Assembly: GCA_964016885.1 (NCBI GenBank)
Contig: OZ024740.1
Span: 96,162,001-96,226,000, forward strand
Direction of reading: 5' to 3'
From: Eledone cirrhosa
Taxonomy: Eukaryota
DNA: 64,000 bases
The notes under the pieces are model-generated. The model worked only from the letters and a program-made list of their open reading frames with translations. It was not told the DNA's origin and searched no databases. A program made the translations under genes and the position numbers. Positions 13,870-59,383 of this stretch are shown in pieces. Position 1 is the first letter of the stretch, and each line of letters begins with the position of its first letter.

Positions 13870-14313
13870 TATATAAGTATGTATACGTACATACATATAT
13901 GTATACAGACGTACAGTAGTATGTATATATATACATACATGCACACACATATATATATTTACGTATTGATTTACATAACATTTATTATAATGCTCGGTTT
14001 GTTTGTAAACAAACAACCCAAATTAAGCCGTAAAGTGTTTAGCAACCATCGTTGCCCTTTTGTTCAACAATGACAAAGGAACTGTCTACTAGTTTCAAGC
14101 TTATTCGCTATCGTCAGTACCGTATACCTTCCTGCCAGATCATTGAACGTCTGAAAGTATATATTTTCCTTATGCATATAAACGGCTGAGCAGCCTAATT
14201 TCCATATCGAGTGAGTTAATCGGCCGGGCGCACCGATAACGATAAATGGAATAAAATGAAACGAAATTTCATTTCTCACTCTTAGTACGGATGTTACTTG
14301 AATATAAGTATGT

Positions 14314-14386
<73 letters not shown>

Positions 14387-15812
14387 GTACGTATTGATTT
14401 ACCTAACATTTATTATAATGTTCGGTTTGTTTGTAAACAAACATCCCGAATTAAGCCGTACAGTGTTTAGCAACCATCGTTGCACATTTGTTCAACAATG
14501 ACAAAGGAACTGTCTACTAGTGTCAAGCTTATTAGCTATCCTCAATACCGTATACCATCCTGCCAGATGAATGAACGTCTGAAAGTATATACACTCCTTG
14601 TGCATATTAACTGCTGAGCAGCCTAATTTGCATATCAAGTGAGTTAATCGGCCGGGCGCACCGAAAACGATAAATGGAAACAATGAAACGAAATTTCATT
14701 TCTCACTCTTAGTAAGGCTGTTACTTAAATATAAGTATGTATACATACATACATATATGTATACATACGTACAGTAGTATGTATATATATATACATACAT
14801 GCACACATATATATATGCAGGTGTGGATTTACCGAACATTTATTATAATGTTCGGTTTGTTTGTAAAAAAACATCCCAAATTAAGACGTACAGTATTTAG
14901 CAACCATCGTTGCCCTTTTGTTCAACACTGACAAATGAACGATGTACTAGTTTCAAGCTTATTACCTTGAAAAAAAGGGTAACGATGGTTGCTAAACACT
15001 GTACGGCTTAATTTGGGATGTTTGTTTACAAACAAACCGAGCCTTATAATAAATGTTCGGTAAATCCATAGGTACATATATATATATATGTGTGCATGTA
15101 TGTATATATATATACATACTACTGTACGTATGTATACATAGAGCTCATAGGGCAAAACAGCTCTTAAGAGTCAATGGCCATCCAAAATCACCGGGAGAGA
15201 TGACCCCTTAGCCTTTGTCAAGGCAGAATTCTAGGAGAAGGAAAACTCTGATATTACACCTGCAACCCTGATGGTATCCAATGATGTTGATTTGTTCTTC
15301 TTTTTTTGGTAAATATCATCTTGGTTAAGAGAGTGGGACAGGCTTTGTGCAGTGCCTTTGCTCACTATAAAAGCTTCACGGCACAGTCATTGCTTTATAT
15401 CTGGATATCTCTCTGCACTTGTCCTCACATGGTACCATGAGCCCAGCACTATGTGTCAATAATTGTCACAAGTGTAGTGTTTGTACCAGAGTTTTCAAGT
15501 CGCTGGCTGGACTAAAAACTCTCACTCGTTCAGCGCTTCGGTAGGGGTTCTCCTACATGGATATAAAGTAGTGGCCGTACTCGAAAACGAGTTGGCAGCC
15601 ACCATGTATGTACGTATACATACATATATTTAAGTAACATCCGTACTAAGAGTGAGAAATGAAATTTCGTTTCATTGTTTCCATTTATCCTTTTCGGTGC
15701 GCCCGGCCGATTAACTCACTCGATATGCAAATTAGGCTGCTCAGCAGTTAATATGCATAAGGTAAGTATATAATTTCAGACGTTCAATCATCTGGCAGAA
15801 AGGTATACAGAA
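13870..15812 (-). repeat. ~430-445-bp HHR-bearing tandem repeat (about 2.5 units plus inverted arm), older locus
   Basis: Unit tataagtatgtatac...gaaatttcatttctcactcttagt repeats at ~13870, 14300 and 14730, inverts at ~14965 and resumes at 15605-15812. HHR CTGACGA tagc gaataa gctt GAAA CTAG TA at 14081-14123 (minus). Confidence 0.85.
15141..15600 (+). mobile_element. Insertion resembling an RTE 5' UTR fragment
   Basis: Motif tctaggagaaggaaaactctga recalls RTE 5' UTRs. It interrupts the inverted arm of the 445-bp repeat. Confidence 0.45.
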
Positions 15813-15814
15813 TA

Positions 15815-17792
15815 TTACTAAGACACAAACAAGACCTATCGTGTCTAGCATAGAAGGACCCCGATACAAAATCTCCTGGCTCCTCTCCCAGGTCCTCAAG
15901 CCTCTACTCTCCATCTTTCCCAGGCATGTCAGTAGCTCCGACGAGGTCACACGTAGACTACACCAACTCCAGCCCAATGAACTTAAACTAAATAGATACG
16001 CATTTAGCCTGGACGTTCTCTCCCTCAAAACTACAGTCCCCTCTCATCCAGCAGTCGATTTATTGACGGACTCTTGGGCGCAGAGGACATCCACTGCTAC
16101 GGCCTCCATCCGACGGACATACACCAGATGTTGTCCTTCACAGTGGACAACAGGTACTTCACATTCCACCACCACACATACAGACAGACAACAGGATTAC
16201 CAATGAGATCCAGCCTATCGGGCCTGCTGGCCATCACCTTTATGAACCCGCTAGAATGCCGAGCCCTCAACACCTGCCATTGCTATACCCTCTTCATCCG
16301 ATATGTACATGGCATACTCATTCTTACATCATCCCGTGAGTAGGCGGATAAAATATACACGACATCTCCAGCATGGACGCCAGTATACAGTTCAACATGG
16401 AACAACCTGATGACCGCTTATCCCTATCCCTACTGGACTTCTAACTCGGGGTAACAGAAGAAGGTAACATCCACACCTGCTTCTATAAAAAAGCCGCCAG
16501 CAGGGACCTGTTCGTACATTTCAGATCGGCCCTCCCAGCCGGCGCTAAGTTCGGATACATAAGGAACGAACTAACACGTATCCGGAACAAATGTACTGAC
16601 GCTAGAGACCGAGACACACACACCACACATTTCATGGAAGTTCTCAAACTGAACGGATACCCGATGTCCACCACGAACCGTGCCAGAAAGAACAAGATCC
16701 GCACCCGTGGCACTAACACTTGATTTCTGAAGATCCCACCGTTCAGTGACGAAACAACAGCCATCCGCAGAGCTATCAGCAGAGAGGGACTGGATGACCA
16801 ACTAACTCACTCAGGACCTTCTCTACGCGGACAGCTAACCAAAAGACACTCCACCAGACATTACGGCCTCTGCAAGCTAGCCAACTGCCCCATCAATGAC
16901 ACAGACCTATGCCACCAGGCTTACGTCGTATACAGATTAGAGTGCGACTAATGCAGCAATGTCTACGTAGTTAGCACCACCAGACCACTTCACATAAAAA
17001 TAAAAGAACACCTCAATAGTAACGCATCATCATTTAAGAAACACCTAGTGAAATGTAAAAATACCGCCAAAAACATAACAGTTAGGATAGAAACCAAGGA
17101 AAGAAATCTCGGCAATCTTAGAATTAAGGAAGCACTGATTATAGACAAAACACAACCACCAATCAATAATAGACTAGAACTCAACACCCAATTTATAACA
17201 TGAAAGAGCACCCTCATTTACACCCCCTTCCACACACACGCACACGCACACACACACGAAAACGCACACACATACACGCTTACACCTTAACTTATTCTCT
17301 CTCTCACACACACATACACACACAAAGAGCAGTTTTAACATGATAGAGAAACTAGACCCCACATTTAAGTATATACATATCTTCTCACACTCACACACAC
17401 ACACACACACACGCATACTTACGCTTTTACGTATTCTCCCACACATTTAAACATACATGTACAAAACCACTTTTAAAGGGAGACTACTCTTTATCCACCT
17501 AACCTTCACTCTTTGACATTAGAGTTAGAATGGAATATCTATACAAGTTCCTGTCAGCATGACTTGGCAAGCTAATTAGAAGACTGGAATAACCATATTA
17601 CTTCCCTCCGAAGGAGATATATTATCTCACAAATTAAGGATATTTAAATAAATTAAAGGTAAAAGACTACTTGTCAACAATATCTTTTGCATTTGCATTT
17701 ATATTCTATATCCATCCCTGCATTGTCTTGGCCTTACAACTCCAAACATTTATACCTCATTACACAATGCTTCAAGTGAACTACATCTTCCT

Positions 17793-17795
<3 letters not shown>
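15815..17795 (+). mobile_element. Poseidon-like PLE, 5'-truncated: RT, GIY-YIG and pLTR
   Basis: RPIVSSIEGP, SLDVLSL, GLPMRSSLSG, IRYVHG (decayed YVDD), YKKAASRDLFVHFRS, VVYRLEC..C..VYV.STTRPLHIKIKEH. Many frameshifts. Confidence 0.9.
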
Positions 17796-17843
<48 letters not shown>

Positions 17844-17853
17844 ATATATACAT

Positions 17854-17919
<66 letters not shown>

Positions 17920-17924
<5 letters not shown>

Positions 17925-18650
17925 AAGATAGACATAGAATATTCGAAAATATTCTGTATGTTTATAATAAACATTTTGAAGACCTAATCGCTATAGAATA
18001 GAATACGTCACGTATTACAATTAGATTCTCGATAAAAGCAAGGGAAGTAACAACCGCTCTTTCAAACCAGTTCCTGTACACAGCTAAGTATTCTATAAGT
18101 CTCTAGCTGTGTCATTCTCGATAAAAGCACTGGATATGTAATCCTGAAGATTTCTAATAAGAATGAAACGCGTAGGTTACTTCCCTTGCTTTTATCGAGA
18201 ATCTAATTGTAATACGTGACGTATTCTATTCTATAGCGATTAGGTCTTCAAAATGTTTATTATAAACATACAGAATATTTTCGAATATTCTATGTCTATC
18301 TTCACATATATATCGCTATTTCAGAGCATTTATTCCAATTTCTAATTTCTGCCGAACCGGCAACCGCTCTTTCAAACCAGTTCCTGTACACAGCTAAGTA
18401 TTCTATAAGTCTCTAGCTGTGTCATTCTCGATAAAAGCACTGGATATGTAATACTGAAGATTTCTAATAAGAATGAAACGCGTAGGTTACTTCCCTTGCT
18501 TTTATCGAGAATCTAATTGTAATACGTGACGTATTCTATTCTATAGCGATTAGGTCTTCAAAATGTTTATTATAAACATACAGAATATTTTCGAATATTC
18601 TATGTCTATCTTCACATATATATCGCTATTTCAGAGCATTTATTCCAATA
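17920..18650 (+). repeat. 310-bp HHR tandem repeat, second locus (short inverted arm plus about 2 units)
   Basis: HHR gtaatc CTGAAGA tttc taataa gaat GAAA CGCG TA ggttac at 18138-18180 and 18448-18490. Inverted arm 17920-18050; flanked by (TA)n. Confidence 0.92.
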
Positions 18651-18717: not shown

Positions 18718-18772
18718 ACTGCTATATACATTTCGGTCACAGCCGTCTTTGGCTGTGACCTCTTCAGGCAGT
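18718..18772 (-). ncRNA. Type I hammerhead ribozyme (solo)
   Basis: actgc CTGAAGA ggtcacagcc aaagac ggctgtgacc GAAA TGTATA TA gcagt aataaa; perfect 10-bp helix II and 5-bp helix I. Confidence 0.9.
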
Positions 18773-19164: not shown

Positions 19165-20334
19165 GGAGGTGAGTTTTATTGTAGTACAATAAAGCAATGC
19201 AGATATCGGATAAGAAGCACTCTACAGTTTGTAGGACTGGAGTATACATAATATAAGATCAAAAGATGGTTAAAGGAGTTCCATGTATTTTATTATGCGC
19301 ATTTCAAAAACAAACATCATCATGCAATAATATTTGTGTTTTCATCAGATAAAACAGGAGAACATGATATGAAGGCTAAAAAACACCTGTGGACAGTGCA
19401 GTTTTAAATCAACATATGAAAAGTGGTTTTAGATTGACGTGTGATATTGGGAAAAATATTTTATTTAGAGAGGGGGGGTGGAAAGGATGAAAAGGGAAGG
19501 AGATGAGAGGGAGAGATGGTTTTTATAACAGAGAGTAGATATATAGTGTTACATAGAGAGGTTGAAAACCGTTGGAAGATAATGTATAAATTAAAAATTT
19601 TGAAAATTAACGAAGGGAGGATATGTACGAGGAAAAAAAAAATATATATTTTATTTAGGGATTGGGGGGGGGGTGAAAAAAAGGGGAGGAGATGAGAGTG
19701 AAGGTGGAGAGGGAGAGATGGGTGATAGAGAGAAAGAGATAGTTTTTATAACTGAGAAAAAGATATATTGTTTTAACATAGAGAGGTTGGGAACCGTTGG
19801 AAGATAATGTATAAATTAAAGGAATTTGAAAAATAACGAAGGGAATTTATGTATGAAGATAGAGAGAAAACAATAATAATTGTGGATGAATATTCTAACG
19901 TCAAAAAAAGAAATGTATGTATTGTGGCAATTTCAAAATTAACGAAGAGAAAAATTATTGAGGTTTGTGTGTAGAAGGATTTGAGAAAAAATGTGAAGTT
20001 AAAGTTTGTATATTGAAAGGATTGATAATATATGCGAATAAAGAGTTAATATGTATTAATAATGAGTTCGTTGATGGGGAGAAAAAAATAATAAATTAAG
20101 GATGAAATTGAGATTAAAAAGATTTATGATAGAGAGAAAAAATAATAATGATTGCGGATGAATATTCAAACGTCAAAAACAAGAAATGTATGTTATGATT
20201 TTATAAGGTGAAGATAGAATGAGGGTAATGAGTAAACAAGTATTATCGAGTGTATAATGCCCTTTAAAGTAAGGTAGATGGGTATATTTTAAAGAGGTGT
20301 ATGTATAAGTGCCTTTGAGAATAAAATACTAAAT

Positions 20335-21006
20335 ACTAAATCTCTTCCTTCCAATATTGAATTTCATAATAACAGTAATAGTACTCCCGACGTCATTGTA
20401 AACCCTAGGCTAACTTCTGTAAACCCAAATACAACGTCAAACACAACTTCGCTAAATGTTCATAATCCAACTCTAAATCAAGAAACTATTATTCCTATTA
20501 TTCCTATCGCAAATAACTTCTCCAATCCAATTCCTTCTATAGATAACACTAGATCACTCATTAATAATCTCTCTAATTGCAACTGCCGCATTAAAAATAA
20601 ATGTCCTCTCAACAACCATTGTCTCGATAAAAACTTAATTTATGAATGTAAAATTATAAATAGCACCAATTCCTTCACCTATTTTGGCTCCACTTCCACC
20701 TCTTTTAAAGCTCGTCTCTATAATCATCATTCATCTTTCAAATACAAACTTAAAAGAACCAACACTGCTCTCTCAGAACTCATATGGTCCTTAAAAGACA
20801 AAAACATTAAATATACCATCTTTTGGAAGAAGATTTCTTCTGCATCCTCATACTTGAACAGCTCTCTATCTAAAATCTGTAATCTCTGCCTAAATGAAAA
20901 ATTTACCATTATCTCTAACCTAGATTCTATAATAAACAGCCGTACAGATTTGTTTTCTATCTGCCTGCATAAATTCCATAGAACTTTTCACAAGGTATAC
21001 AGTTAA
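20335..21006 (+). pseudogene. GIY-YIG endonuclease C-terminal ORF fragment (no ATG, absent from ORF track)
   Basis: Manual translation from 20575: NCNCRIKNKCPLNNHCLDKNLIYECKII..YFGSTSTSFKARLYNHHSSF..ICNLCLNEK..ICLHK, TAA at 21004-21006. Confidence 0.9.
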
Positions 21007-22024
21007 TATTCAATTCTTTATCAATTTAGAATCTTTTCTCAAAGGCACTTATACATACACCTCTTTAAAATATACCCATCTACCTTACTTTAAAGGGCAT
21101 TATACACTCGATAATACTTGTTTACTCATTACCCTCATTCTATCTTCACCTTATAAAATCATAACATACATTTCTTGTTTTTGACGTTTGAATATTCATC
21201 CGCAATCATTATTATTTTTTCTCTCCATCATAAATCTTTTTAATCTCAATTTCATCCTTACTTTTATTATTTTTTTCTCCCCATCAACGAACTCATTATT
21301 AATACATATTAACTCTTTATTCGCATATATTATCAATCCTTTCAATATACAAACTTTAACTTCACATTTTTTCTCAAATCCTTCTACACACAAACCTCAA
21401 TAATTTTTCTCTTCGTTAATTTTGAAATTGCCACAATACATACATTTCTTTTTTTGACGTTAGAATATTCATCCACAATTATTATTTTTTTCTCTCTATC
21501 TTCATACATAAATTCCCTTCGTTATTTTTCAAATTCCTTTAATTTATACATTATCTTCCAACGGTTCCCAACCTCTCTATGTTAAAACAATATATCTTTT
21601 TCTCAGTTATAAAAACTATCTCTTTCTCTCTATCACCCATCTCTCCCTCTCCACCTTCACTCTCATCTCCTCCCCTTGTTTTCATCATTCCCCCCCAATC
21701 CCTAAATAAAATATATATTTTTTTTTTCCTCGTACATATCCTCCCTTCGTTAATTTTCAAAATTTTTAATTTATACATTATCTTCCAACGGTTTTCAACC
21801 TCTCTATGTAACACTATATATCTACTCTCTGTTATAAAAACTATCTCTTTCTCTCTATCACCCATCTCTCCCTCTCATCTCCTTCCCTTTTCATCCTTTC
21901 CACCCCCCCTCTCTAAATAAAATATTTTTCCCAATATCACACATCGATCTAAAACCACTTTTCATATGTTGATTTAAAACTGCACTGTCCACAGGTGTTT
22001 TTTAGCCTTCATATCATGTTCTCC

Positions 22025-22095
22025 TGTTTTATCTGATGAAAACACAAATATTATTGCATGATGATGTTTGTTTTTGAAATGCGCATAATAAAATA
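22025..22095 (+). ncRNA. Type I hammerhead in PLE pLTR (mirror copy ~19286-19356, minus)
   Basis: tgttttat CTGATGA aaacacaaatattatt gc atgatgatgtttgttttt GAAA TGCGCA TA ataaaata; palindromic helix III. Confidence 0.9.
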
Positions 22096-22172
22096 CATGG
22101 AACTCCTTTAACCATCTTTTGATCTTATATTATATATATATATATATATATATATTGAGTATATGTTGGTTG

Positions 22173-22652: not shown

Positions 22653-22696
22653 TATATATATATATACATATGTACATATATATATATATATATATA

Positions 22697-25680
22697 TATG
22701 AATATAGACATAGAATATTCGAAAATATTCTGTATGTTTATAATAAACATTTTGAAGACCTAATCGCTATAGAATAGAATACGTCACGTATTACAATTAG
22801 ATTCTCGATAAAAGCAAGGGAAGTAATCTACGCGTTTCATTCTCGTTAGAAATCATCAGGACTACATATCCAGTGCTTTTATCGAGAATGACACAGCTAG
22901 AGACTTATAGAATACTTAGCTGTGTACAGGAACTGGTTTGAAAGAGCGGTTGCCGGTCCGGCAGAAATTAGAAATTGGAATAAATGCTCTGAAATAGCGA
23001 TATATATGTGAATATAGACATAGAATATTCGAAAATATTCTGTATGTTTATAATAAACATTTTGAAGACCTAATCGCTATAGAATAGAATACGTCACGTA
23101 TTACAATTAGATTCTCGATAAAAGCAAGGGAAGTAATCTACGCGTTTCATTCTCGTTAGAAATCATCAGGACTACATATCCAGTGCTTTTATCGAGAATG
23201 ACACAGCTAGAGACTTATAGAATACTTAGCTGTGTACAGGAACTGGTTTGAAAGAGCGGTTGCCGGTCCGGCAGAAATTAGAAATTGGAATAAATGCTCT
23301 GAAATAGCGATATATATGTGAATATAGACATAGAATATTCGAAAATATTCTGTATGTTTATAATAAACATTTTGAAGACCTAATCGCTATAGAATAGAAT
23401 ACGTCACGTATTACAATTAGATTCTCGATAAAAGCAAGGGAAGTAATCTACGCGTTTCATTCTCGTTAGAAATCATCAGGACTACATATCCAGTGCTTTT
23501 ATCGAGAATGACACAGCTAGAGACTTATAGAATACTTAGCTGTGTACAGGAACTGGTTTGAAAGAGCGGTTGCCGGTCCGGCAGAAATTAGAAATTGGAA
23601 AAAATGCTCTGAAATAGCGATATATATGTGAATATAGACATAGAATATTCGAAAATATTCTGTATGTTTATAATAAACATTTTGAAGACCTAATCGCTAT
23701 AGAATAGAATACGTCACGTATTACAATTAGATTCTCGATAAAAGCAAGGGAAGTAATCTACGCGTTTCATTCTCGTTAGAAATCATCTATATATCGCTAT
23801 TTCAGAGCATTTATTCCAATTTCTAATTTCTGCCGGACCGGCAACCGCTCTTTCAAACCAGTTCCTGTACACAGCTAAGTATTCTATAAGTCTCTAGCTG
23901 TGTCATTCTCGATAAAAGCACTGGATATGTAGTCCTGATGATTTCTAACGAGAATGAAACGCGTAGATTACTTCCCTTGCTTTTATCGAGAATCTAATTG
24001 TAATACGTGACGTATTCTATTCTATAGCGATTAGGTCTTCAAAATGTTTATTATAAACATACAGAATATTTTCGAATATTCTATGTCTATATTCACATAT
24101 ATATCGCTATTTCAGAGCATTTATTCCAATTTCTAATTTCTGCCGGACCGGCAACCGCTCTTTCAAACCAGTTCCTGTACACAGCTAAGTATTCTATAAG
24201 TCTCTAGCTGTGTCATTCTCGATAAAAGCACTGGATATGTAGTCCTGATGATTTCTAACGAGAATGAAACGCGTAGATTACTTCCCTTGCTTTTATCGAG
24301 AATCTAATTGTAATACGTGACGTATTCTATTCTATAGCGATTAGGTCTTCAAAATGTTTATTATAAACATACAGAATATTTTCGAATATTCTATGTCTAT
24401 ATTCACATATATATCGCTATTTCAGAGCATTTATTCCAATTTCTAATTTCTGCCGGACCGGCAACCGCTCTTTCAAACCAGTTCCTGTACACAGCTAAGT
24501 ATTCTATAAGTCTCTAGCTGTGTCATTCTCGATAAAAGCACTGGATATGTAGTCCTGATGATTTCTAACGAGAATGAAACGCGTAGATTACTTCCCTTGC
24601 TTTTATCGAGAATCTAATTGTAATACGTGACGTATTCTATTCTATAGCGATTAGGTCTTCAAAATGTTTATTATAAACATACAGAATATTTTCGAATATT
24701 CTATGTCTATATTCACATATATATCGCTATTTCAGAGCATTTATTCCAATTTCTAATTTCTGCCGGACCGGCAACCGCTCTTTCAAACCAGTTCCTGTAC
24801 ACAGCTAAGTATTCTATAAGTCTCTAGCTGTGTCATTCTCGATAAAAGCACTGGATATGTAGTCCTGATGATTTCTAACGAGAATGAAACGCGTAGATTA
24901 CTTCCCTTGCTTTTATCGAGAATCTAATTGTAATACGTGACGTATTCTATTCTATAGCGATTAGGTCTTCAAAATGTTTATTATAAACATACAGAATATT
25001 TTCGAATATTCTATGTCTATATTCACATATATATCGCTATTTCAGAGCATTTATTCCAATTTCTAATTTCTGCCGGACCGGCAACCGCTCTTTCAAACCA
25101 GTTCCTGTACACAGCTAAGTATTCTATAAGTCTCTAGCTGTGTCATTCTCGATAAAAGCACTGGATATGTAGTCCTGATGATTTCTAACGAGAATGAAAC
25201 GCGTAGATTACTTCCCTTGCTTTTATCGAGAATCTAATTGTAATACGTGACGTATTCTATTCTATAGCGATTAGGTCTTCAAAATGTTTATTATAAACAT
25301 ACAGAATATTTTCGAATATTCTATGTCTATATTCACATATATATCGCTATTTCAGAGCATTTATTCCAATTTCTAATTTCTGCCGGACCGGCAACCGCTC
25401 TTTCAAACCAGTTCCTGTACACAGCTAAGTATTCTATAAGTCTCTAGCTGTGTCATTCTCGATAAAAGCACTGGATATGTAGTCCTGATGATTTCTAACG
25501 AGAATGAAACGCGTAGATTACTTCCCTTGCTTTTATCGAGAATCTAATTGTAATACGTGACGTATTCTATTCTATAGCGATTAGGTCTTCAAAATGTTTA
25601 TTATAAACATACAGAATATTTTCGAATATTCTATGTCTATATTCACATATATATCGCTATTTCAGAGCATTTATTCCAAT
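22697..25680. repeat. 310-bp hammerhead-bearing tandem array (retrozyme-like): about 3.5 inverted plus 6 forward units
   Basis: Exact 310-bp period, near-identical units, inversion junction at 23787/23788, (TA)n on both flanks. Confidence 0.97.
23929..23971 (+). ncRNA. Minimal type I hammerhead (also at 24239, 24549, 24859, 25169, 25479 plus; 22823, 23133, 23443 minus)
   Basis: gtagtc CTGATGA tttct aacg agaat GAAA CGCG TA gattac; canonical core, palindromic CGCG helix III. Confidence 0.95.
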
Positions 25681-34805: not shown

Positions 34806-34839
<34 letters not shown>

Positions 34840-34842
<3 letters not shown>

Positions 34843-35115
34843 GGAAAAAATGAAACGATATTTCATTTCCCACTCTTAGTACGGCTGTTACTTAAATATA
34901 AGTATGTACACGTACATACATATATGTATACCGACGTACAGTAGTATGTATATATATATATACATACATGCACACATATATATATGCACGTATGGATTCA
35001 CCGAACATTTATTATAATGCTCCGTGTGCTTGTAAACAAACATCCCGTATTAAGCCGTAGTGTCTAGCAACCACCGTTGCTCGTGTGTTCAACACTGACA
35101 AAGGAACGCTGTACT
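34840..35115 (-). repeat. Fragment of the 445-bp repeat family
   Basis: Matches the unit; ends at ctgacaaaggaacgctgtacta, inside the HHR. Confidence 0.85.
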
Positions 35116-35204
35116 ATATATATACATATATTTATTTAGGTTTGTTGGTTTACCACTCAATTGAACTGGTCATTCCGTATAGTCAACCTCGATAGAATAT
35201 TATG

Positions 35205-35757
35205 GAGAGAATTCAACGTAATGCAACTCACCCGTCTTCGTTTGTCTAGTTAGTGGTGGGAGTACAGAGTTAATTATTATAAAATAACAGGCGGCTGGAA
35301 TGGTGTAATTCCCTGAAATGTTTATTATACTATGATTATTTCAATGACCAGGTTCAATATGAATCCGTTGATATCATCAGGCATTCAACATATAACAAAG
35401 GAATATAATAGACAAAGTACATGGGGCTGAAAATCAGAGATATCAGGGCGACCGAACATTTAGCAGCTCCTACCTCGGTCGAGAGCATTCAACGTAATGC
35501 AACTCACCCGTCTTCGTTTGCGTAGTTGGTGGTGCGAGTACGGAGTTAATTATTATAAAATAACAGGAGGCTGGAATGGTCTAATTGCTTGAAAGGTTTA
35601 TTATACTGTGAACATTTCAATGACCGGGTTCAGTATGACCCGGTGATATCATCAGGCATTCAAAATATAACGAAGGAATATAATAGACAAAGTCCATGGG
35701 GCTGAATATCAGAGACATGAGGGCGACCGAACATTTAGCAGCTCCTACCACGGTCGG
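35205..35757 (-). repeat. ~276-bp hammerhead-bearing tandem dimer
   Basis: attcaacgtaatgc at 35211 and 35487. Minus-strand atgc CTGATGA [helix II] GAAA taatca TA gtat (35327-35384) and a second copy at ~35603-35659. Confidence 0.85.
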
Positions 35758-39037: not shown

Positions 39038-39927
39038 TTTTCAAATTTTTTTAATTTCCCCTCGTCTTTAACAGCACTCTTCAATTACATCTAACTCTTA
39101 TTTATCATATCTATATGCATTAATATAATTTTACCAATATAAATATCCCCATCAATTAAATTAATTTATATTCTTTTCATAGATGTAAATTCCATATATA
39201 TTTTTTTCACTAACACTTTTATCCTAAAATTTTAGTCTCGTTAGATATTTACATTGGCATTATTCTTTTATAACAGCAACTGTTCGTGTACCTTTTACTG
39301 ACCTGACCTATTTTCACCCCTAAAATAACCTTTTCATTCTTCATACGCGTTCCATTCAAAACTGAAATCTGCCTTCTTCTACCCCTAAAATAAAATTCCA
39401 TTACTACTATTTTACCATTTGGCCAATTATTACCTTGCTATTGGTCAATTCAAAACCTGTTCCCAAACAGACCTACTATATTAAATCTTTGTTGGTTTTA
39501 TTCAATGAACAAATACAATTATTTCTGAGGTCAGCATATGACCTATTTTCATCCCTAAAATAATCTTTCATTCATAATATTCTTTCCATCCAAAACTGAA
39601 GTCTACCTTGCTCTACCCATAAATTAAAGTTCTTTTACTACTGTTTTACCATCTTGACCTTCACTATCTTTCTATTGGTCAATTCAAAACCTGTTCCCAA
39701 ACAGACCTATTGTATTAAATCTTTGTTGGTTTTTTCAATAAACAAATATCATTATTTCTGAAGACAGCATATATATGTGTAGGTGTGTATATTCCCTCTG
39801 ATAGTTTGTAAAAAATTTACATAGATCTATAGGATATGCATACCAACACTAACTTATATATCCTAGAAACGATCGTAAAATGATGAATTTTTTAATATAA
39901 GGAACTGTTTCTTTGTTTATTCATTAT

Positions 39928-40997: not shown

Positions 40998-41277
40998 TAA
41001 GTACGGGTGATACTTAAATATAAGTATTTATACGTACATACATATATGTATACAGACGTATAGTAGTATGTATATAAATACATACATGTACATATATATA
41101 TATTTATATATGTACGTATGGGTTTACCAAACATTTATTATAATGCTCGGTTTGTTTGTAAATAAACAGCCCGAATTATTAGCTGTACATTTTTCGGCAA
41201 CACTGTACGGCTAATAATTCGGGCTGTTTGTTTAAAAACAAACCAAGCATTATAATAAATGTTCGGTAAACCCATAC

Positions 41278-41324
<47 letters not shown>

Positions 41325-41390
41325 CATGTATGTATGTATATACATACTACTGTACGGCTGTATACATACATGTATGTACGTATACATACT
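40998..41390. repeat. Fold-back fragment of the 445-bp family
   Basis: 41015-41190 is inverted at 41200-41390. Confidence 0.8.
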
Positions 41391-41398
41391 TTTATATA

Positions 41399-41453: not shown

Positions 41454-42876
41454 TATTAATAATGAGTTCAAACCTCAGGCAGTCCTTTACAATGAAAAAG
41501 CTCCAAGAAAGAAGTATTTCCGAGCCGTGTACAAGTTAATATAAATTAATATATTTGATAAACACAAATACCAACATATCCGTGTTTGTATTGTAAACGA
41601 CTAAAGTTAGCTAGATTGAAAAATACTAATTATAATAATACAGTTTGCCTGTCTCGATTTAAAATAATAAATCAATAAAAACAAAGCATATTGGCAAATG
41701 GCCGTGGTGCTTGGACAAATTTAAATTTCAAAATCAAACCTGTTCCGCAGATAGGTCTAAACCTTAAAATCCAAATATGTTTCGAAAACTGAAAAAAGTG
41801 GAAGAATACCGCATTTCTATCTCCTCAGCAAGCACCAGAAAAATTGGTATGTTCCACTTCAAAATATTTAAAAAGACTGTTTAACGCACATGGTTTTTCA
41901 CATACGGCCATCCAGTGTCTAGCTGCCCCATACTCGTGCTGCTAGAAATAACAGCCGTTTATATGGGGCTAAATTTAGCTCTACCTAAGGAGCAGTGATA
42001 CTATTAATAATGAGTTCAAACCTCAGGCAGTCCTTTACGATGAAAAAGGTCAAAGAAAGAAGTACTTCCGAGCCGTGTAATACAAGTTAAAATAAATTAA
42101 TATATTTGATAAACAGAAATACCAACATATCCGTGTTTGTATTGTAAACGACTAGAGTTATATAGATTGAAAAATACTAATATAATAATACAGTTTGCCT
42201 GTCTCGATTTAAAATAATAAATCAATAAAAACAAAGCATATTGGCAAATGGCCGTGGTGCTTGGACAAATTTAAATTTCAAAATCAAACCTGTTCCGCAG
42301 ATAGGTCTAAACCTTAAAATCCAAATATGTTTCGAAAAATGAAAAAATTGGAAGAATACCGCATTTTTATCTCCTCAGCAAGCACCAGAAAAATTGGTAT
42401 GTTCCACTTCAAAATATTTAAAAAGACTGTTTAACTCACATGGTTTTTCACATACGGTTATCCAGTGTCTAGCTGCCCCATACTCGTGCTGCTAGAAATA
42501 ACAGCCGTTTATATGGGGCTAAATTGAGCTCTACGTAAGGAGCAGTGATACTATTAATAAGGAGTTCAAACCTCAGGCAGTCCTTTACAATGAAAAAGCT
42601 CAAAGAAAGAAGTATTTCCGAGCCGTGTAATACAAGTTAATATAAATTAATTTTGAAATTAATTTATGAATTGATTTTGAAATTTAAATTTGTCCAAGCA
42701 CCACGGCCATTTGCCAATATGCTTTGTTTTTATTGATTTATTATTTTAAATCGAGACAGGCAAACTGTATTATTACAATTAGTATTTTTCAATCTAGCTA
42801 ACTTTAGTCGTTTACAATACAAACACGGATATGTTGGTATTCGTGTTTATCAAATATATTAATTTATATTAACTTG

Positions 42877-42880
<4 letters not shown>
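41452..42880 (-). repeat. 550-bp hammerhead-bearing tandem array (about 2.2 units plus inverted arm)
   Basis: Period 550. HHRs at 41705-41837 and 42255-42387 (minus). Inverted arm 42670-42880; (TA)n flanks. Confidence 0.92.
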
Positions 42881-42914
<34 letters not shown>

Positions 42915-49913: not shown

Positions 49914-49956
<43 letters not shown>

Positions 49957-49959
<3 letters not shown>

Positions 49960-51378
49960 TTAACACAAATCAATATATTTGATAAACACAAATATCCTCA
50001 TATTTATGTTTGTATTGTAAATGACCAAGTTAGCTAGATAGAAATATACTAATAATAATATTACAGTTTGCCTATCATGACTGAAGATAATACATCATAA
50101 ATCAACAAAAACAAATTGTATTGGCAATGGCCGTAGTGCTTGGACAAATTTAAATTTCAAAATCAAACCTGTTCCGTAGACAGGTTTAAACCTTAAAATC
50201 CAAATATGTTTCAAATAATGAAAAAGTGGAAGAAAATACCGCATTTTCATCTCATTATTATTGATTTTTCACTGCTCCTTCGTTGAGCTGATTTTAGTCC
50301 CATACAAACGGCTGTTATTTCTAGCAGCACGAGTATGAGGCTTGCTAGACACTGGATAACCGCATGAGGTTACCTCGTGCGCTAAACAGTCTTCCTAAAT
50401 ATTTTGAAGCGGAACATATCAATTTGTATAGTGCTTGCTGAGGAGATCAAGATGCGGTATTTTCTTCCACTATTTCATTATTCGAAACACATTTGGATTT
50501 TAAGGTTTAAACCTGTCTACGGAACAGGTTTGATTTTGAAATTTAAATTTGTCCAAGCACTACGGCCATTGCCAATACAATATGTTTTTGTTGATTTATG
50601 ATGTATTATCTTAAGTCATGATAGGCAAATGTAATATATTTATTAGTATATTTCTATCTAGCTAACTTTGTCATTTACAATACAAACATAAATATGAGGA
50701 TATTTGTATTTATCAAATATATTGATTCGTGTTAACCTATATTACACGGCTCAGAAATACTCTTTCTCGAGCTATTTCATTGTAAATGATCGCCTGAGAT
50801 TTGAACTCATTATTATTGATATTTCACTGCTCCTTCGTTGAGCTGATTTTAGCCACATACAAACGGCTGTTATTTCTAGCAGCACGAGTATGAGGCTAGC
50901 TAGACACTGGATAACCGCATGAGGTTACCTCGTGCGCTAAACAATCTTCCTAAATATTTTGAAGTGGAACATACCAATTTTTATAGTGCTTGCTGAGGAG
51001 ATCAAAATGCGGAATTTTCTTCCACTTTTTCATTATTCGAAACACATTTTGATTTTAAGGTTTAAACCTGTCTACGGAACAGGTTTGATTTTGAAATTTA
51101 AATTTGTCCAAGCACTACGGCCATTGCCAATACAATTTGTTTTTGTTGATTTATGATTTATTATCTTAAGTCATGATAGGCAAACTGTAATATTATTATT
51201 AGTATATTTCTATCTAGCTAACTTGGTCATTTACAATACAAACATAAATATGAGGATATTTGTGTTTATCAAATATATTGATTTGTGTTAACCTATATTA
51301 CGCGGCTCAGAAATACTCTTTCTTCGAGCTATTTCATTGTAAATGATCGCCTGAGATTTGAACTCATTATTATTGATT
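49957..51378 (+). repeat. 555-bp hammerhead-bearing tandem array (inverted arm plus 2 units)
   Basis: Inverted arm 49957-50250, period 555, (TA)n flanks. Confidence 0.92.
50429..50562 (+). ncRNA. Large type I hammerhead with GUC site (second copy 50984-51117)
   Basis: tagtgcttg CTGAGGA [39-nt helix II] GAAAC [~62-nt hairpin] GTC caagcacta. Confidence 0.9.
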
Positions 51379-51380
51379 TG

Positions 51381-51709: not shown

Positions 51710-51900
51710 GAGCTTCTACAGGACTAGAACTGTTTCATTCGTGAGGAATCAACACGGGGCTCCGTGATGATACCTCACGAATGAAACAGTTCTAGTCCTG
51801 TAGAAGCTCTTCTATATTAAAGCGTTTATACTCTGCTATGTATTTATTATTGAGTACCATACTTACTATGTTTACCTCCGATTCAACTCGGAATAACTTA
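51703..51900. repeat. Short fold-back element with degenerate hammerhead-like core
   Basis: tagaagagcttctacaggactagaactgtttcattcgtgagg (51705-51746) is inverted at 51773-51814. GTGATGA..gaat GAAA cagttc TA gtcc. Confidence 0.7.
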
Positions 51901-52010
51901 TATATATAGTAATAATAATAAATGTGAAGACTAAAATCCAAAGAGGGTTCGATAAGGATAATATATATCAAATATATAAGAACCGTAGAGCAAATATTTA
52001 TTAAAATAAC

Positions 52011-52082
52011 AGATTAAAGTTTAAGCAAAGAATCGCTGATTTCACCCTTAACGGGATCTTCAGAAATTAACAAAGTCAATAT
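52011..52082 (-). ncRNA. Type I hammerhead in pLTR (other copies 55283-55353 minus, 57092-57163 plus)
   Basis: Consensus agttt CTGAAGA tcccgttaagggt GAAA gca gcgattctt tgc TT aaact. Each copy carries 1-2 substitutions. Confidence 0.75.
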
Positions 52083-53019
52083 GTAAACGCAGAAGTGTAT
52101 ATTTCAAAAAACGTTGCAACCGGAGGAACACAGGAATACGATACATTGGTTCGTGGAAACGTTCCCTGGCAAAGAGAGGGAAAAACGCATATAATACGTC
52201 ATTAATAGGAGGGGTGAAAAGCAATTACGCGCAAAAACAGAACCACGTTCATGGTATAAAATGAGTCGTAGACTAATGTTCACTTAGGTGGTTTATAGAG
52301 AAGTTCTCTGGCAATGAACGGAAAAAACGAAGATAATATGTTGTATGTGGACCGTGGAGAACAATTGCACGCAAAGACAAGACCACGTAAATGGTATAGC
52401 TGAAGTCGTAGACGAAAATTCTAACTGGGAAACCGAATGAATCTTCGCTTCAGAGTTAAGAATAAAGTAAATAAAATACAATACAGAGGTATTAGAAATT
52501 AAATAAATACATACACGCATGCAAATACGTACATACACAAGCATACGCGAAAACACTGCCATAGGTATACAAAACCACGCACATACAAATATGTGTATGT
52601 GTGTGTGCGTGTATACAAATAAATAAATAATTAAATAAACCTATATAAATAAATAAATACGTATATAACAAGCGCACACACATACCTACATGTAAATACA
52701 CAAACGTTCGGAGACGTAAGTCAACCAAAACATGAAGTACACATATACACACACGCAACATACGTACGAACCTGCACACTCACACAGAAGCAAAACTCCC
52801 GTATCCACATAACCAAACCATATGTACCAGAATATATAAAAAAAATTATACGCCATAACATATACAATCAAATATACGTACGAGAAAGTATACGTACCTT
52901 CACAAAACATACATGTAATATATACGTACCCATGCAAATAAGTAATGGTATAAACAAAACATATACTTAGCTACCCCATCACGACGTAAATTATCCACGT
53001 ATAGATGGTAGTATCCGTT

Positions 53020-55135
53020 AGGGTATAGCGTGTGGTTGTAATACAGGAAAGTTTTGTGCAATTCATGTTTACAAGCCGTAATCGCCTCAGATTGTTTGTT
53101 AAGGATGTGGTCTGTGGCGTAGAGTATTTTCAGGGCCTCAGCGGCGCAGTGGTCACATGGTCTTTTATTTCCGTTATACGATCTAGCCCTAGCTAGGATC
53201 TCCCAGTGTAACTTATATTGGGTGTGGTTGTCTTTTAGACTCCAGATATAAGCTGAAAGTGACGTCATATTCCTTCTTAGAGGGTAACGAAAAGAATGCG
53301 TATGAATGTAAAGACGCTGCTTGAATCTATTGGCGGTTAACCCTATGTAGGCCCTACGGGATGTGGCTGTTTCAACCTTACATTTGTAGACAATGTTACT
53401 AGAGAGGGATTTCCCGGATAGGTGGTAATCAACCCGATTCCTACAATTACAGTTAGTACTAACTTCCCGAGTTGCACGTGTTGCGACGGGTAGGAAGTTT
53501 AGCTAAATTTGAAGCTGTGATGTTTTGTGCAATGTTAGGAGTAGTAGAGTAAGACATTTTAATAGTATTTCTATTAAAAATGTTACTATATTTATGTGTA
53601 GGGGGAAAATTCTTCGTAATAAGGGAAAGAAAGATCTTAGCTGGCGGTGTGGCCACCTCCATATTATATAGTTGGTTATACCAACAAATGCGACGGGATC
53701 TATTTCTTCTAGGTCTATTTTCGTACTCAGTATATGCTTCCTTATCGACAAATCCACTCCGAGCAAGAGCTTCATTGTAATAAGTGGAATGGTCGTTGAA
53801 AATATACTTGTTAGTAGATAGACGGGAAAGCCTCAACGAAACGTTTCTTACCACGTTCTTAGTTATGCTGGTAGGATGGTTGGAATGTTTACTTATGGAA
53901 TTAAACGTATCATTCGGCTTTCTATGCGGGTAATACAACCCATTCGATAAATTGAGGGTAACATCGAGGTAATTACCGACCGAGAGATTGGCCTCAACCT
54001 GTATAGATAGGTTGAAGCCTTTAAAGAAGGCTGTGATTTCTTTTCTGAACATGTCGCAAGCACGAGGTCCGCACTTAGTTATTGTCAAAACACCATCATC
54101 ACGGCACAAACCACCGCCCGCGTTGGGGAATTCGTCCTTGATAGAGAAAAAAAGGAAAAGGCCGATAAGATCAGTACCTCCGCAGAATCGCTGGCGCCCA
54201 TACTCACGTCGAATGGGGTACTATTGGATTTTTTTATCCAAATAGAATGGCGAAATTAATCACCGACTTACGGGCATTGAGGGTGAAATCAACTTCGAAA
54301 TCCTTAACCACTGTGAGTGTTTTAGCGAAATTGATAGCTCTAAGGAGAAGTGGTAAAGTGATGGAGGAGTAGTAATTGTTGATGTCGAATTGGATAACAC
54401 GGCAATGTTCCTTGTTGTATATGCCGTTGAACCAATCAATCCCCGAAATATTTGTTCCACAGTGCAAGAGGGGCCAAACTTCTAATTTCTGGTATAATTC
54501 TATCAAGAATCCTTTTACTAAGCCTACCTAAATCGGACTTCGTAGGGGTAATAAGCCGAATAGAGGGGTTGTTCGGAAAATTGGATTTGTGATCCTTCAG
54601 GGTAAAGTGGGGGAGAAATAGGGTCCAGAGGTTCGTTCCGGTCAGGATGTTGAGATCAGAGGTGATGTTTAACCCAGCATCGTTGATTTCATTGATGACG
54701 CACCGATTAGTTTTACGGTAATCCTCAGTTACAGCATTATGTAGCAGTTGATGGTAAGTACTGCGCTCCACTTGATATAGGTTGCCAGTTTTGTCGGAAT
54801 GGACGTGCACTGCATTAGAATCCTTAATTAAACGAAATCTATTCTTCAGGTCCTGCTGGAAGGAATTGCTCCTATTCCGAAATTTGATACTCCGTATGAG
54901 TTTCAAGACATCATTTTCGAAGGGTAGCAATGCTGTGTTAAACGGGGGGTTATTATAGATTTTAAACCCACATTTATCCTGTTTGTTGTCTGCTTTTCGC
55001 GGATTATCGAAATAAAGGCACGCCAACGCAACCGTTTAATGAACGCGTCTGTTTTCTGTATCAGGAGTTTTAGGTATGTTTCCTGCTTGGTAAGGGTATG
55101 TTCTTTGTAGAAATATTCAGGATTTGTTTCTGCAT
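53020..55135 (-). pseudogene. Frameshifted Naiad RT-GIY-YIG ORF
   Basis: MQKQILNISTKNIP, FIKRLRWRA, DKTGNLY, LKDHK, RLITPTKSDLG, QFDINNYYSSI, CRDD, NYLDVTL, SNHP, CNC linker, CDHCAAE, ACKH. Confidence 0.92.
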
Positions 55136-57184
55136 GATGAATATAAGTCAATAGAGTGCTCAACCAAGGGAGCGAAATAGTAATAATAATAAATCTGAAG
55201 ACTAAAATTCAAAGATGGCTCGATAAGGATAAATATATATCAAATATATAAGAACCGTAGAGCAAATATTTATCAAAATAGCAGATTAAAGTTTAAGCAA
55301 AGAATCGCTGCTTTCACCCTTAACGGGATCTTCTGAAACTAACAAAGTCAATATGTAAACGCAGAAGTGTATATTTCAAAAAACGTTGCAACCGGAGGAA
55401 CACAGGAAGACGATACTTTGTTTCGTGGAAACGATCCCTGGCAAAGAACGGGAAAATACGAATATAATACGTAATTAATAGGAGCGGTGAAAAACAATTA
55501 CGTGCAAAGACAGAACCACGTTTATGGTATAAAAGAAATCGTAGACTAATGTTCTCTTAGGTGGTTTATAGAGACGTTCTCTGGCAATGAACGAAAAAAA
55601 ACGAAGATAATACGTCGTATGTGGACTTTGGAGAACAATTGCACGCAAAGACTAAACCACGTAAATGGTATAGCTGAAGTCGTAGACTAATATTCTAACT
55701 AGGAAACCGAATTAATCTCTGCTTCAGAGTTAAAAATAAAGTAAATAAAATACAATACAGAGGTAATAGAAATTAAATAAATACATACACGCATGCAAAT
55801 ACGTACATACACAAGCATACGCAAAAATACTTGCCATATGTATACAAAACCACGCACATATAAATATGTGTGTGTGTGCGTGTATACACATAAATAAATA
55901 ATTAAATAAACGTATATAAATAAATAAATACGTATATCACAAGCGCACACACATACCTACATGTAAATACACAAATGTTCGGAGACGTAAGTCAACCAAA
56001 ACACGAAGTACACATATACACACACCCAACATACGTCCGAACCTGCATACTCACACAGACGCAAAACTCCCGTATACACATAACCAAACTATGTGTACCA
56101 GAATATATGAAAAAAGTATACGCCATAACATATACAATCAAATATACCTACGAGAAAGTACGTACCTTCACAAAACATACATGTAATATATACTTACATA
56201 TGCAAATAAGTAATGGTATAAACAAAACATATACTTAGCTACCACATCAAGACGTAACATATCCACGTATAGATCGTACTATCCGTTAGGGTATAACGTG
56301 GGGCTGTAATACAGGAAGGTTTTGTGCAATTTATTTTTAAGATTTTTTGTTAAGGAAGTGGTCTGTGGCGTAGAGTATTTCCAGGGCCTCAGCGGCGCAG
56401 AGGTAAACAGGTCTTTTCTTCCGTTATACGATCTAGCCCTAGCTAGGATCTCCCAGTGTAACTTATATTGGGTGTGGTTGTCTTTTAGTCTTCAGATATA
56501 AGCTGAAAGTGACGTCATATTCCTTCTTAGAGATTTACGAATCTATTGGCGGTTAACATTATGTAGGCCCTACGACGCGTGGGTTTTTCAACCTTACATT
56601 TGTAGACAATGTTACTAGAGAGGCATTTCCCGGATAGGGGGCAATCAACCCGATTCCTACAATTACAGTTACTACTAACTACAGGGTTGCACGTGATCCT
56701 ACGGTTAGGTAGTTTTGCTAAATTTGAAGCTGTGATGTTATGTGCATGGTTAGGAGTCGTAGAGTAAGAAATTTTAATAGTATTTCTATTAAAAATGTTA
56801 CTATATTTATGTGTAGGGGGAAAATGCTTCGTAATAAGCGAAAGAAAGACCTTAGCTAATGGTGTGGCCACCTCCATATTATATGGTGGGTTATACCACC
56901 AGATGCGACGGGATCTATTTCTTCTAGGTCTATTTTCGTACTCAGTATATGTTTTTCACCGCTCCTATTAATGACGTATTATATTCGTTTTTTCCCGTTC
57001 TTTGCCAGGGAACGGTTCCACGAACCAAAGAATCGTCTTCCAGTGTTCCTCCGGTTGCAACGTTTTTTTAAATATTCACTTCTGCTTTTACAGATTGACT
57101 TTGTTAGCTTCAGAAGATCCCGTTAAGGGTGAAAGCAGCGATTGTTTGCTTAAACTTTAATCTGTTATTTTAATATATATATAT

Positions 57185-59297
57185 ATAAATGTAAGTATGT
57201 ATGTATACGTACATACATATATGTATACAGACGTACAGTAGCATGTATATGTATATATACATACAGGCACACATATATATATATGCACGTATCAGTTTAC
57301 CGAACATTTATTATAATGCTCGGTTTGTTCGTTTGTAAACAAACAAACAGCCTGAATTACGCCGTACAGTGTTTAGGCAAACACGTCACCCTTTTGTTCA
57401 ACACTGACACAGGAACGATGTACTGGTTTCAAGCTTATTGGCTATCGTCAGCACCGTATACCTTTCTGCCAGATGGTTGAACGTCCGGAAGTATATACTT
57501 TCCTTATGTAAATTAACGGCTGAGCAGCCTAATTTGCATATCGAGTGAGTTCAGTCGGCCAGGCGCACGGAAAACGATAAATGGAATAGAATGAAACGAA
57601 ATTTCATTTCTCACTCTATACGGCACTTACTTAAATGTAAGTATTAGCTAATAAGCTTGAAACTAGTACATCGTTCCTGCGTCAGTGTTGAACAAAATGG
57701 TTACGTGGTTGCCTAAACACTTTACGGCGTAATTCAGGCTGTTTGTCTGACTACAAACGAACAAACCGAGCATTATAATAAATGTTCGGTAAACTGATAC
57801 GTGCATATATATATATATGTGTGCATGTATGTATATATATATATACATGCTACTGTACGTCTGTATACATATATGTATGTACGTATACATACATACTTAC
57901 ATTTAAGTAAGTGCCGTACTAAGAGTGAGAAATGAAATTTCGTTTCATTCTATTCCATTTATCGTTTTCGGTGCGCCTGGCCGACTGAACTCACTCGATA
58001 TGCAAATTAGGCTGCTCAGCCGTTAATTTTCATTAGGAAAGTGTATACTTTCGTACGTTCAACCATCTGGCAGAAAGGTATACGGTGCTGACGATAGCTA
58101 ATAAGCTTGAAACTAGAACATCGTTCCTGTGTCAGTGTTGAACAAAAAGGTGACGTGGTTGCCTAAACACTTTACGGCGTAATCCAGGCTGTTTGTTTGT
58201 TTACAAACGAACAAACCGAGCATTATAATAAATGTTCGGTAAACTGATACGTGCATGTATATATGTGTGCCTGTATCTATATATATATATATATATACAT
58301 GCTACTGTACGTCTGTATACATACATGTATGTACGTATACATACATACTTACATTTAAGTAAGTGCCGTACTAAGAGTGAGAAATGAAATTTCGTTTCAT
58401 TCTATTCCATTTATCGTTTTCGGTGCCCCGGGCCGACTGAACTCACTCGATATGCAAATTAGGCTGCCCAGCCGTTAATTTTCACAAGGAAAGTATATAC
58501 TTTCGGACGTCAACCATCTGGCAGTAAGGTATACGGTGCTGACGATAGCTAATAAGCTTGAAACTAGTACATCGTTCCTGTGTCAGTGTTGAACAAAAAA
58601 GGTGACGTGGTTGCCTAAACACTGTACGGCGTAATTCAGGCTGTTTGTTTGTTTACAAACGAACAAACCCAGCATTATAATAAATGTTCGGTAAACTAAT
58701 ACGTTATTATATATATGTGTGCCTGTATGTATATATATACATGCTACTGTACGTCTGTATACATATATGTATGTACGTATACATACATACTTACATTTAT
58801 GTAAGTGCCGTACTAAGATTGAGAAATGAAATTTCGTTTCATTCTATTCCATTTATCGTTTTCGGTGCTTCTGGCTGACTGAACTCACTCGATATGCAAA
58901 TTAGGCTGCTCAACCGTTAATTTTCATAAGGAAAGTCTTATACTTTCGGACGTTCAACCATCTGGCAGAAAGGTATACGGTGCTGACGATAGCTAATAAG
59001 CTTGAAACTAGTACATCGTTCCTGTGTCAGTGTTGAACAAAATGGTAACGTGGTTGCCTACACACTGTACGGCGTAATTCAGGCTGTTTGTTTGTTTACA
59101 AACGAACAAACCGAGCATTATAATAAACGTTCGGTAAACTGATACGTGCATATATATATATATGTGTGCCTGTATGTATATATATACATGCTACTGTACG
59201 TCTGTATACATATATGTATGTACGTATACATACATACTTACATTTAAGTAAGTGCCGTACTAAGAGTGAGAAATGAAATTTCGTTTCATTCTATTCC

Positions 59298-59300
<3 letters not shown>
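57185..59300 (+). repeat. ~445-bp hammerhead-bearing tandem array (1 inverted plus about 3.7 forward units)
   Basis: Inversion at ~57645. CTGACGA at 58088, 58539 and 58983; (TA)n flanks. Confidence 0.95.
58533..58575 (+). ncRNA. Minimal type I hammerhead (also 58082, 58977 plus; 57415-57457 minus)
   Basis: acggtg CTGACGA tagc taataa gctt GAAA CTAG TA catcgt; palindromic CTAG helix III. Confidence 0.93.

Positions 59301-59383
<83 letters not shown>

Follow-up and report, generated by a model that had tools for sequence, protein, structure and literature searches.

The window analysed here, a stretch of 64,000 nucleotides from Eledone cirrhosa (assembly GCA_964016885.1, contig OZ024740.1, positions 96,162,001 to 96,226,000 of the forward strand), is AT-rich and of animal type, contains 77 runs of (TA)6 or longer and holds many broken reverse transcriptase (RT) and GIY-YIG fragments; some SINE-like stretches appear cephalopod in character. 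The locus at 57186-59303, termed locus D, belongs to a genuine family of non-coding units of 444-451 bp that occurs at three further loci of the window (A, B, and C). All four loci are homologous, with 77-94% identity to the reference unit (the reference's own copy excluded), in agreement with a preliminary description of this DNA that had assigned them to one family. Tandem Repeats Finder reports a repeat of 452 x 3.7 with a period of about 450 at 57645-59303, and the cleavage-to-cleavage spacings in this array are 450, 451, and 444 bp. Locus D is free of ORFs of 110 aa or longer, and the two 2-kb bins spanning it have a GC content of 0.38 and 0.33, below the 50% that delimits non-LTR retrozymes. 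All four loci end in TA runs and form a dispersed multi-copy family without LTRs. The variable internal TA-like microsatellites mentioned in the same description were recovered: 11 of 12 segments carry a tract of 44-72 nt, and the twelfth (A2) has a pure TA expansion unmatched by the search pattern. In the unit shown, this tract and a self-complementary hairpin region span 58244-58353 on the plus strand (unit positions 126-235).

Units of this family carry a hammerhead ribozyme (HHR). A strict HHR pattern matched the window 12 times, but not one of 200 block shuffles. The 445-bp family accounts for eight HHR sites, of which two are intact, two are severed by inversion junctions, and four are mutated; loci B and C lack the core, so that the earlier statement of one HHR per unit applies to loci D and A only. 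The intact type I copies lie on the plus strand in consecutive units, as is characteristic of retrozymes, at 58533-58575 (predicted cleavage after GUA, 58569) and 58977-59019 (predicted cleavage after 59013), and the latter may serve as dimer partner of the former. At 58082-58124 (plus strand) GAA replaces the GUA cleavage triplet and the copy is probably inactive. The remaining mutated copies are situated on the minus strand: in the inverted arm of locus D (57457-57415) loop II reads CAATAA and helix III is non-palindromic, and in the inverted arm of locus A the copy at 14123 has an intact core with a mispaired helix I, while the core of the copy at 14551 is mutated.

The letters of the HHR quoted in the preliminary description are exact at 58533 and 58977, but its classification as a minimal HHR has to be revised. 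Helix I consists of 6 bp with a closing stem and an internal loop (UAU/U). Helix II comprises a U·U plus 3 bp and a 6-nt loop, and helix III one pair and a palindromic tetraloop suited to dimers, with a predicted self-duplex of -4.8 kcal/mol. According to the portions of PMC4209133 covered here, a canonical metazoan type I HHR has a 6-bp helix I, a 4-bp helix II and a palindromic loop III, whereas the min-HHRs of Penelope-like elements (PLEs) possess a helix II of 6-8 bp, an extra nucleotide after A9, a short helix I and a poorly defined loop 1. By these definitions the predicted ribozyme is of the canonical metazoan type I in its dimer-working form, and its short helix II and its 6-bp helix I with internal loop set it apart from the PLE min-HHR. 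In Rfam no match reached the gathering level, the sole hammerhead hit being Hammerhead_HH9 (16.3 bits, E 1.6). Single HHRs of the family do not fold better than shuffles (z -1.4, -1.0, and +0.4), and the predicted minimum free energy structure of a single HHR draws core bases into pairs. The exact HHR patterns had no match among metagenome, viral, and prokaryotic contigs, as expected of an animal repeat.

Beyond the ribozyme, one linear unit folds with a z of -3.6 relative to shuffles, and circular folds of the subfamily majority rows yield z of -5.4 and -9.2 (40 shuffles each); the stability of the monomer is partly owed to its self-complementary TA tracts. Rfam miRNA matches on the TA tract, all under the gathering score, were rejected as low-complexity. 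With a structure predicted from locus D alone as yardstick, four subfamily changes preserve pairing (2.7 expected) and eight disrupt it, and covariation in the unit body is thus an unproven feature of the model. A two-row alifold, in which all six changes at paired sites are compatible, was rejected as circular, and the D-only control does not support it.

Three of the four loci (D, A, and C) are head-to-head inverted, an arrangement that the preliminary description omits. Both arms point outwards, and the outer ends are consequently the 3' ends of the HHR-sense strand. In case of locus D, the inverted arm (57186-57644, minus strand) runs over about 1.03 units from unit position 227 to position 239 of the next unit, and the direct arm (57645-59303, plus strand) comprises 3.7 units, starts within helix II of the HHR, 24 nt ahead of the cleavage site, and terminates at position 296 in the target microsatellite (TA)40 at 59301-59380, which forms the right end of the locus; a shorter TA run (57172-57185) forms the left end. 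The two arms are unequal (3' ends at 239 versus 296, 5' ends at 227 and 428) and not mirror images of each other. The inverted arm of locus A (13872-14964, minus strand, about 2.5 units) starts in loop II of the HHR (-20) and ends at about 235 in (TA)n, and its direct arm (14967-15809, plus strand, unit positions ~20-417) is split by an unrelated insert of 462 bp at 15141-15603, which is single-copy in the window and presumably similar, on the minus strand, to the 5' end of RTE-type elements. Locus B (34837-35117, minus strand) is a single arm of ~0.65 unit that begins 3-5 nt ahead of the cleavage site and reaches position 296, with TA runs on both sides. Locus C (40998-41392) consists of head-to-head partial arms covering positions 44-256 (minus strand) and 48-233 (plus strand) in (TA)n.

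Six of the seven arm 3' ends join TA runs, three at unit positions ~233-239, one at 256 and two at 296, the last being common to loci D and B, with an A/T overlap of 1-5 nt judged by eye. The seventh, that of the direct arm of locus A, joins a Penelope-like fragment directly and in the same orientation, a junction present on one side of the locus only. Target-site duplications were not readable within the TA runs. Altogether, the inverted 5'-truncated copy, the tail at one end and the (TA)n target make up the signature of a PLE-type insertion.

A second, unrelated family of 310 bp shows the same anatomy twice in the window. The insertion at 17914-18649 has an inverted arm ending at 139, a direct arm ending at 165 and the loop TAATAA, and the young insertion at 22690-25680 is composed of 3.5 inverted and 6.1 direct units; both insertions end exactly at 139 on one side and at 165 on the other. 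The 9.6 units of the young array are 99.3-100% identical to one unit across the inversion. Between the two insertions 8 of 310 sites differ. Six of these lie within the HHR: a helix I wobble shift, N7, two positions of loop II, and one core change that only the second unit of the 18-kb copy has. The young array agrees with a single twin-priming rule (133 versus 139), but this rule was rejected, as it fails for loci D and C and for the 18-kb copy. In both families together, the interval from -30 to +3 around the cleavage site holds 5 of 11 arm 5' ends (p 0.0013), and in the 445-bp family alone 3 of 7 (p 0.011); with an interval chosen post hoc, this clustering is a lead only.

The unit bodies of the 445- and 310-bp families have no significant similarity in BLAST (best E 0.23), and the loop TAATAA is common to the former and the 18-kb copy of the latter, as had been noticed before. 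As for the conservation of this loop, a UAAYRA pattern is retained, but it is not an invariant UAAUAA: TAACGA occurs in all nine HHRs of the young 310-bp array (22.7-25.7 kb), and TAACAA in ~49% of the reads of a public run described below. Since loop1-loop2 contacts are regarded as a defining property of canonical type I HHRs in the covered parts of PMC4209133 and PMC6155905, a tertiary role of loop II is plausible by analogy and not a new idea. The HHR of the 310-bp family has the same scaffold, and judged from sequence this entire common scaffold (UAU/U, U·U, UAAYRA) is a better sign than the loop alone.

Outside the TA tract, leave-one-out divergence amounts to 2.5% (39/1547) for locus D, 5.6% (53/947) for A, 8.0% (13/162) for C and 10.9% (19/174) for B, the latter two being upper bounds. 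The graded decay reported previously is therefore present, but is in part a subfamily effect, as 28 diagnostic columns including an 8-nt gap set A, B, and C apart from D and imply at least two source lineages. Together with the many divergent copies in public DNA, these subfamilies and the graded decay support the long-lived amplification that had been proposed. At locus D, 2 of 35 variable sites are common to units, and the divergence of the inverted arm equals that of the direct units; given this star-like pattern, the units were probably copied together from one template. Both locus D and the young 310-bp array fit a single template that was either circular or homogeneous. The pattern of locus A differs from a star, 10 of its 40 variable sites being common to units (some scored on a single outgroup), and indicates either a template in the form of a heterogeneous multimer or a local duplication.

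The preliminary description had asked whether the HHR core is the most conserved segment and had named a core no better conserved than its flanks as a refutation of its reading, and this is formally what the copies of the window show: core versus flank changes are 3/124 versus 33/1248 at locus D (p=1.0) and 4/62 versus 33/867 at locus A (p=0.30). As inserted copies decay neutrally, a comparison among them is mis-specified, and a core decaying like its flanks is what neutral decay predicts. Constraint would be expected between subfamilies, where the visible HHR changes appear structure-compatible, which is suggestive and not significant.

A 406-bp stretch of the unit was mapped against 4 of 16 listed public runs at a threshold of 82% or better. 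The 16 runs include no RNA run, which has no bearing on expression. The matches comprise 86,657 of 12,467,656 reads in run X14, a RAD-biased figure that does not represent a copy number, 10,069 contigs in X1 and, for the runs with a small share, 129 in X4 and 11, partly with short matches, in X7, from which no host range is derived. In the 31-nt segment from the core to the cleavage site only N7 (9,106/18,216, 50%) and loop II position 4 (9,350/18,931) vary in X14 among the 40 of 74 variants listed. The same listed variants include, in helix I, G>T at 58536 (6,061/17,820, 34%) and, at the position pairing with it, 58572, T>G (6,578/20,561, 32%), both of which are found in 73 X1 contigs each. 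Although unphased, these two are consistent with a swap from G·U to U·G. HHR variants among public reads thus seem to sit at free or compensating positions, again a suggestive and not a significant observation.

In X1, loose ends reproduce the B-type end at unit position 296 followed by ATATAT (46 records, agreement 0.66). End pile-ups in X14 (17,055 and 11,980 loose ends after 58391/58392 and 4,339 before 58632) were considered as RT start sites in the hairpin loop and rejected, as they coincide with the AATT sites at 58388, 58457, 58477, and 58633. Molecule ends in this run lie at 58388, 58457, 58460, and 58477, and a large read pile-up starts at the left edge adjoining CATG, which points to an artefact of double-digest RAD with the enzyme pair that we presume for this library. 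An opposite-strand joint of 58390 and 58634 was discarded for the same reason. Separately, 4,368 X14 reads have loose ends at 58667 with a GC-rich hairpin in place of the AT-rich one; these read starts suggest copies that lack an internal TA tract and may represent a third subfamily absent from the window.

PLE remains are found throughout the surroundings of these loci. Traces of the Hydra type comprise six CxCx5C-like linkers and two DKT motifs. The fragment adjoining locus A (15812-17200, plus strand) is a 5'-truncated, broken RT and GIY-YIG fragment (RVT_1 E 0.009, below the cut-off) that we take to be Penelope-like partly on the basis of its motifs; from this one locus, the 15809/15812 junction may result either from template switching or from a later insertion or deletion. 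Between this fragment and the next (TA)n, the segment 17580-17795 matches positions 1-226 (81%) and 916-1011 of the window and is part of another PLE-like element. Pfam matched 4 of 13 ORF fragments, one of them above the cut-off (GIY-YIG at 9972-10331); a LIF_OSM match was dismissed as weak and unrelated. Atlas matches of the ORF fragments were RT-like or unnamed eukaryotic clusters with no clade assigned. Among ten regions of the window compared, including 15812-17800, no autonomous PLE sharing the unit sequence was detected.

Several further elements were observed. At 51890-57180 (minus strand) a partial-tandem Hydra-type PLE is located, with a 231-bp inverted copy (55266-55496/56950-57180) that abuts the left TA run of locus D. 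At 19243-22138, inverted repeats of 1.1 kb (96.8%) in (TA)n surround a Hydra-type endonuclease fragment and each carry an HHR with palindromic helix III (19348, 22033); this is likely the 3' end of an autonomous PLE. A 276-bp dimer with CTGATGA...GAAA cores and long helix II (35205-35756, minus strand) adjoins locus B and is probably another HHR tandem family. Inverted arms and a long helix II mark a ~555-bp tandem family with CTGAGGA cores at two loci (41500-42900 and 49950-51380), which by its predicted motifs represents a further HHR-bearing family with PLE-type anatomy. A relaxed scan revealed isolated HHR-like cores at 18767 (minus strand) and 44093 (plus strand), and found no HHR core in a 234-bp dimer at 39304-39772.

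The earlier label "retrozyme-like" is borne out, since by sequence criteria the 445-bp family belongs to the non-LTR retrozymes. We regard it as highly probable, as far as sequence allows, that the family is a non-autonomous non-LTR retrozyme mobilised by PLEs, and the head-to-head loci with TA-joined 3' ends fit such mobilisation. Tandem copies would be transcribed, and adjacent HHRs, as in homologous systems, would pair via the palindromic helix III; cleavage at GUA would then release monomers of ~445 nt that could be ligated into circles. An RT/GIY-YIG protein, presumably of a PLE, would then nick (TA)n, and reverse transcription would be primed at internal A/U-rich RNA sites at unit positions ~231-240, ~255, and 296. 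The RT would read across HHR junctions and copy more than one unit, and the other strand of the target would prime a second cDNA, to be joined head-to-head. Within this model, motif, anatomy, signs of co-insertion and subfamilies are directly observed. As to the cleavage step, the covered portions of Li, Clavereau and Pollet (2026, bioRxiv 10.64898/2026.07.22.740005) report that only 1 of 9 predicted Xenopus dimers was cleaved in vitro. This counts against the model, as do the small number of intact HHRs, the poor folds of single HHRs, the core that decays like its flanks, the mixed template of locus A and the failure to detect an autonomous PLE with the unit sequence in the ten regions compared. 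A more elaborate version is tentative and rather unlikely as a whole: the loci would be fossils left when a retrozyme circle was reverse-transcribed in a rolling-circle, two-ended and PLE-primed manner, with the folded HHR as preferred stop, locus A would be a template-switch chimera of a Penelope RT copying its own RNA and the retrozyme, and one HHR scaffold would have been shared between unrelated retrozyme bodies.

The units could instead be orphan pLTRs, i.e., 3' ends of an autonomous PLE, and the arrays its partial-tandem, 5'-truncated insertions. PLEs are known to make partial tandems and inverted copies (portions covered of PMC8557442), Xenopus retrozymes are related to pLTRs (covered parts of bioRxiv 10.64898/2026.07.22.740005), and locus A adjoins a PLE ORF fragment. 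However, the 3.7 units of locus D follow each other without a coding spacer, the PLE fragment at 15812-17200 is dissimilar to the unit, and the pLTR-type HHR at 19348/22033 differs in type by its long helix II, which leaves this origin improbable.

Still less probable is a dispersed minisatellite amplified at the DNA level, by unequal exchange and by fold-back repair where TA runs are fragile, in which the HHR would be a non-functional relic. The variants that adjacent units of locus A have in common, the decay of the core at the pace of its flanks and the near mirror palindrome of locus C would suit it, whereas the star-like units and unequal arms of locus D, ends that recur across loci and in the second family, and HHR variants compatible with the structure would not. 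Least probable of all is a SINE-like element mobilised by a non-PLE LINE, e.g., RTE or an L1 with twin priming, which head-to-head inversions resemble; the direct arm of the young 310-bp array starts at 133, right beside the outer end of the other arm at 139. Against this stand the lack of a poly(A) or fixed 3' tail in the copies, their ends at several internal sites within the tandem unit, and the (TA)n bias with a one-sided tail, both PLE traits in the covered sections of PMC8557442.

The putative PLE-mobilised retrozyme has close counterparts in known systems. The retrozymes described in the covered portions of Cervera and de la Pena (2020, PMC7229834), e.g., Rtz331 and Rtz353 of the axolotl and the 350-390 bp repeats of mussels, are likewise tandem, non-coding repeats of 150-450 bp with low GC, a structured monomer, and one canonical type I HHR per unit with weak palindromic helix III, the comparison being with a family known here from its DNA alone. 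The U·U pair closing the base of helix II and the palindromic tetraloop are as in axolotl retrozymes (U·U in HHR_Amex2). The 445-bp family differs by its new sequence, its position at the upper end of the size range and its internal TA-like tract, and head-to-head (TA)n insertions are not described in those portions. In the parts covered, the PLE link that Li, Clavereau and Pollet argue for is based on how animal retrozymes are distributed and on their pLTR homology, with vertebrates as the main source. The 445-bp family likewise co-occurs with PLEs, and locus D, with two consecutive units and complete HHRs, would count as "active" by their sequence rule; unlike in their retrozymes, no pLTR homology was detected and the link is given by the insertion anatomy.

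PLE copies are inverted, 5'-truncated and bear a tail of 30-40 bp at one end, and (TA)n targets are a trait notably of the Hydra clade with CxCX5C linker and DKT motif, according to the covered portions of Craig et al. (2021, PMC8557442). For Poseidon PAc, the available parts of Frangieh et al. (2024, PMC11167929) report a PLE protein that cuts and extends both strands from internal RNA sites, with an insertion that does not need HHR cleavage. As in these EN+ PLEs, the 445-bp family combines tandem and inverted 5'-truncated structure, a one-end tail, an HHR, (TA)n or AT-rich targets and putative internal RT starts. Its ends spread over about 65 nt, and those of the 310-bp family over 26 nt, compared to the 30-40 bp PLE tail. 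In contrast to EN+ PLEs, the unit is devoid of an ORF, and its HHR is canonical while most PLEs carry a min-HHR. In the partially covered literature we found no description of the 445-bp family, nor of such an insertion anatomy for retrozymes.

As such, the 445-bp family extends a widespread class in an ordinary way, and its main value lies in the insertion anatomy. The insertion route of retrozymes and the enzyme behind it are proposed and not demonstrated in the portions covered of PMC7229834 and bioRxiv 10.64898/2026.07.22.740005, and the anatomy of these loci provides a third line of evidence for mobilisation by PLEs. It yields testable coordinates, namely priming at ~231-240 and 296 (139 and 165 in the 310-bp family) and stops at the HHR, and singles out Hydra-type PLEs as candidate partners.
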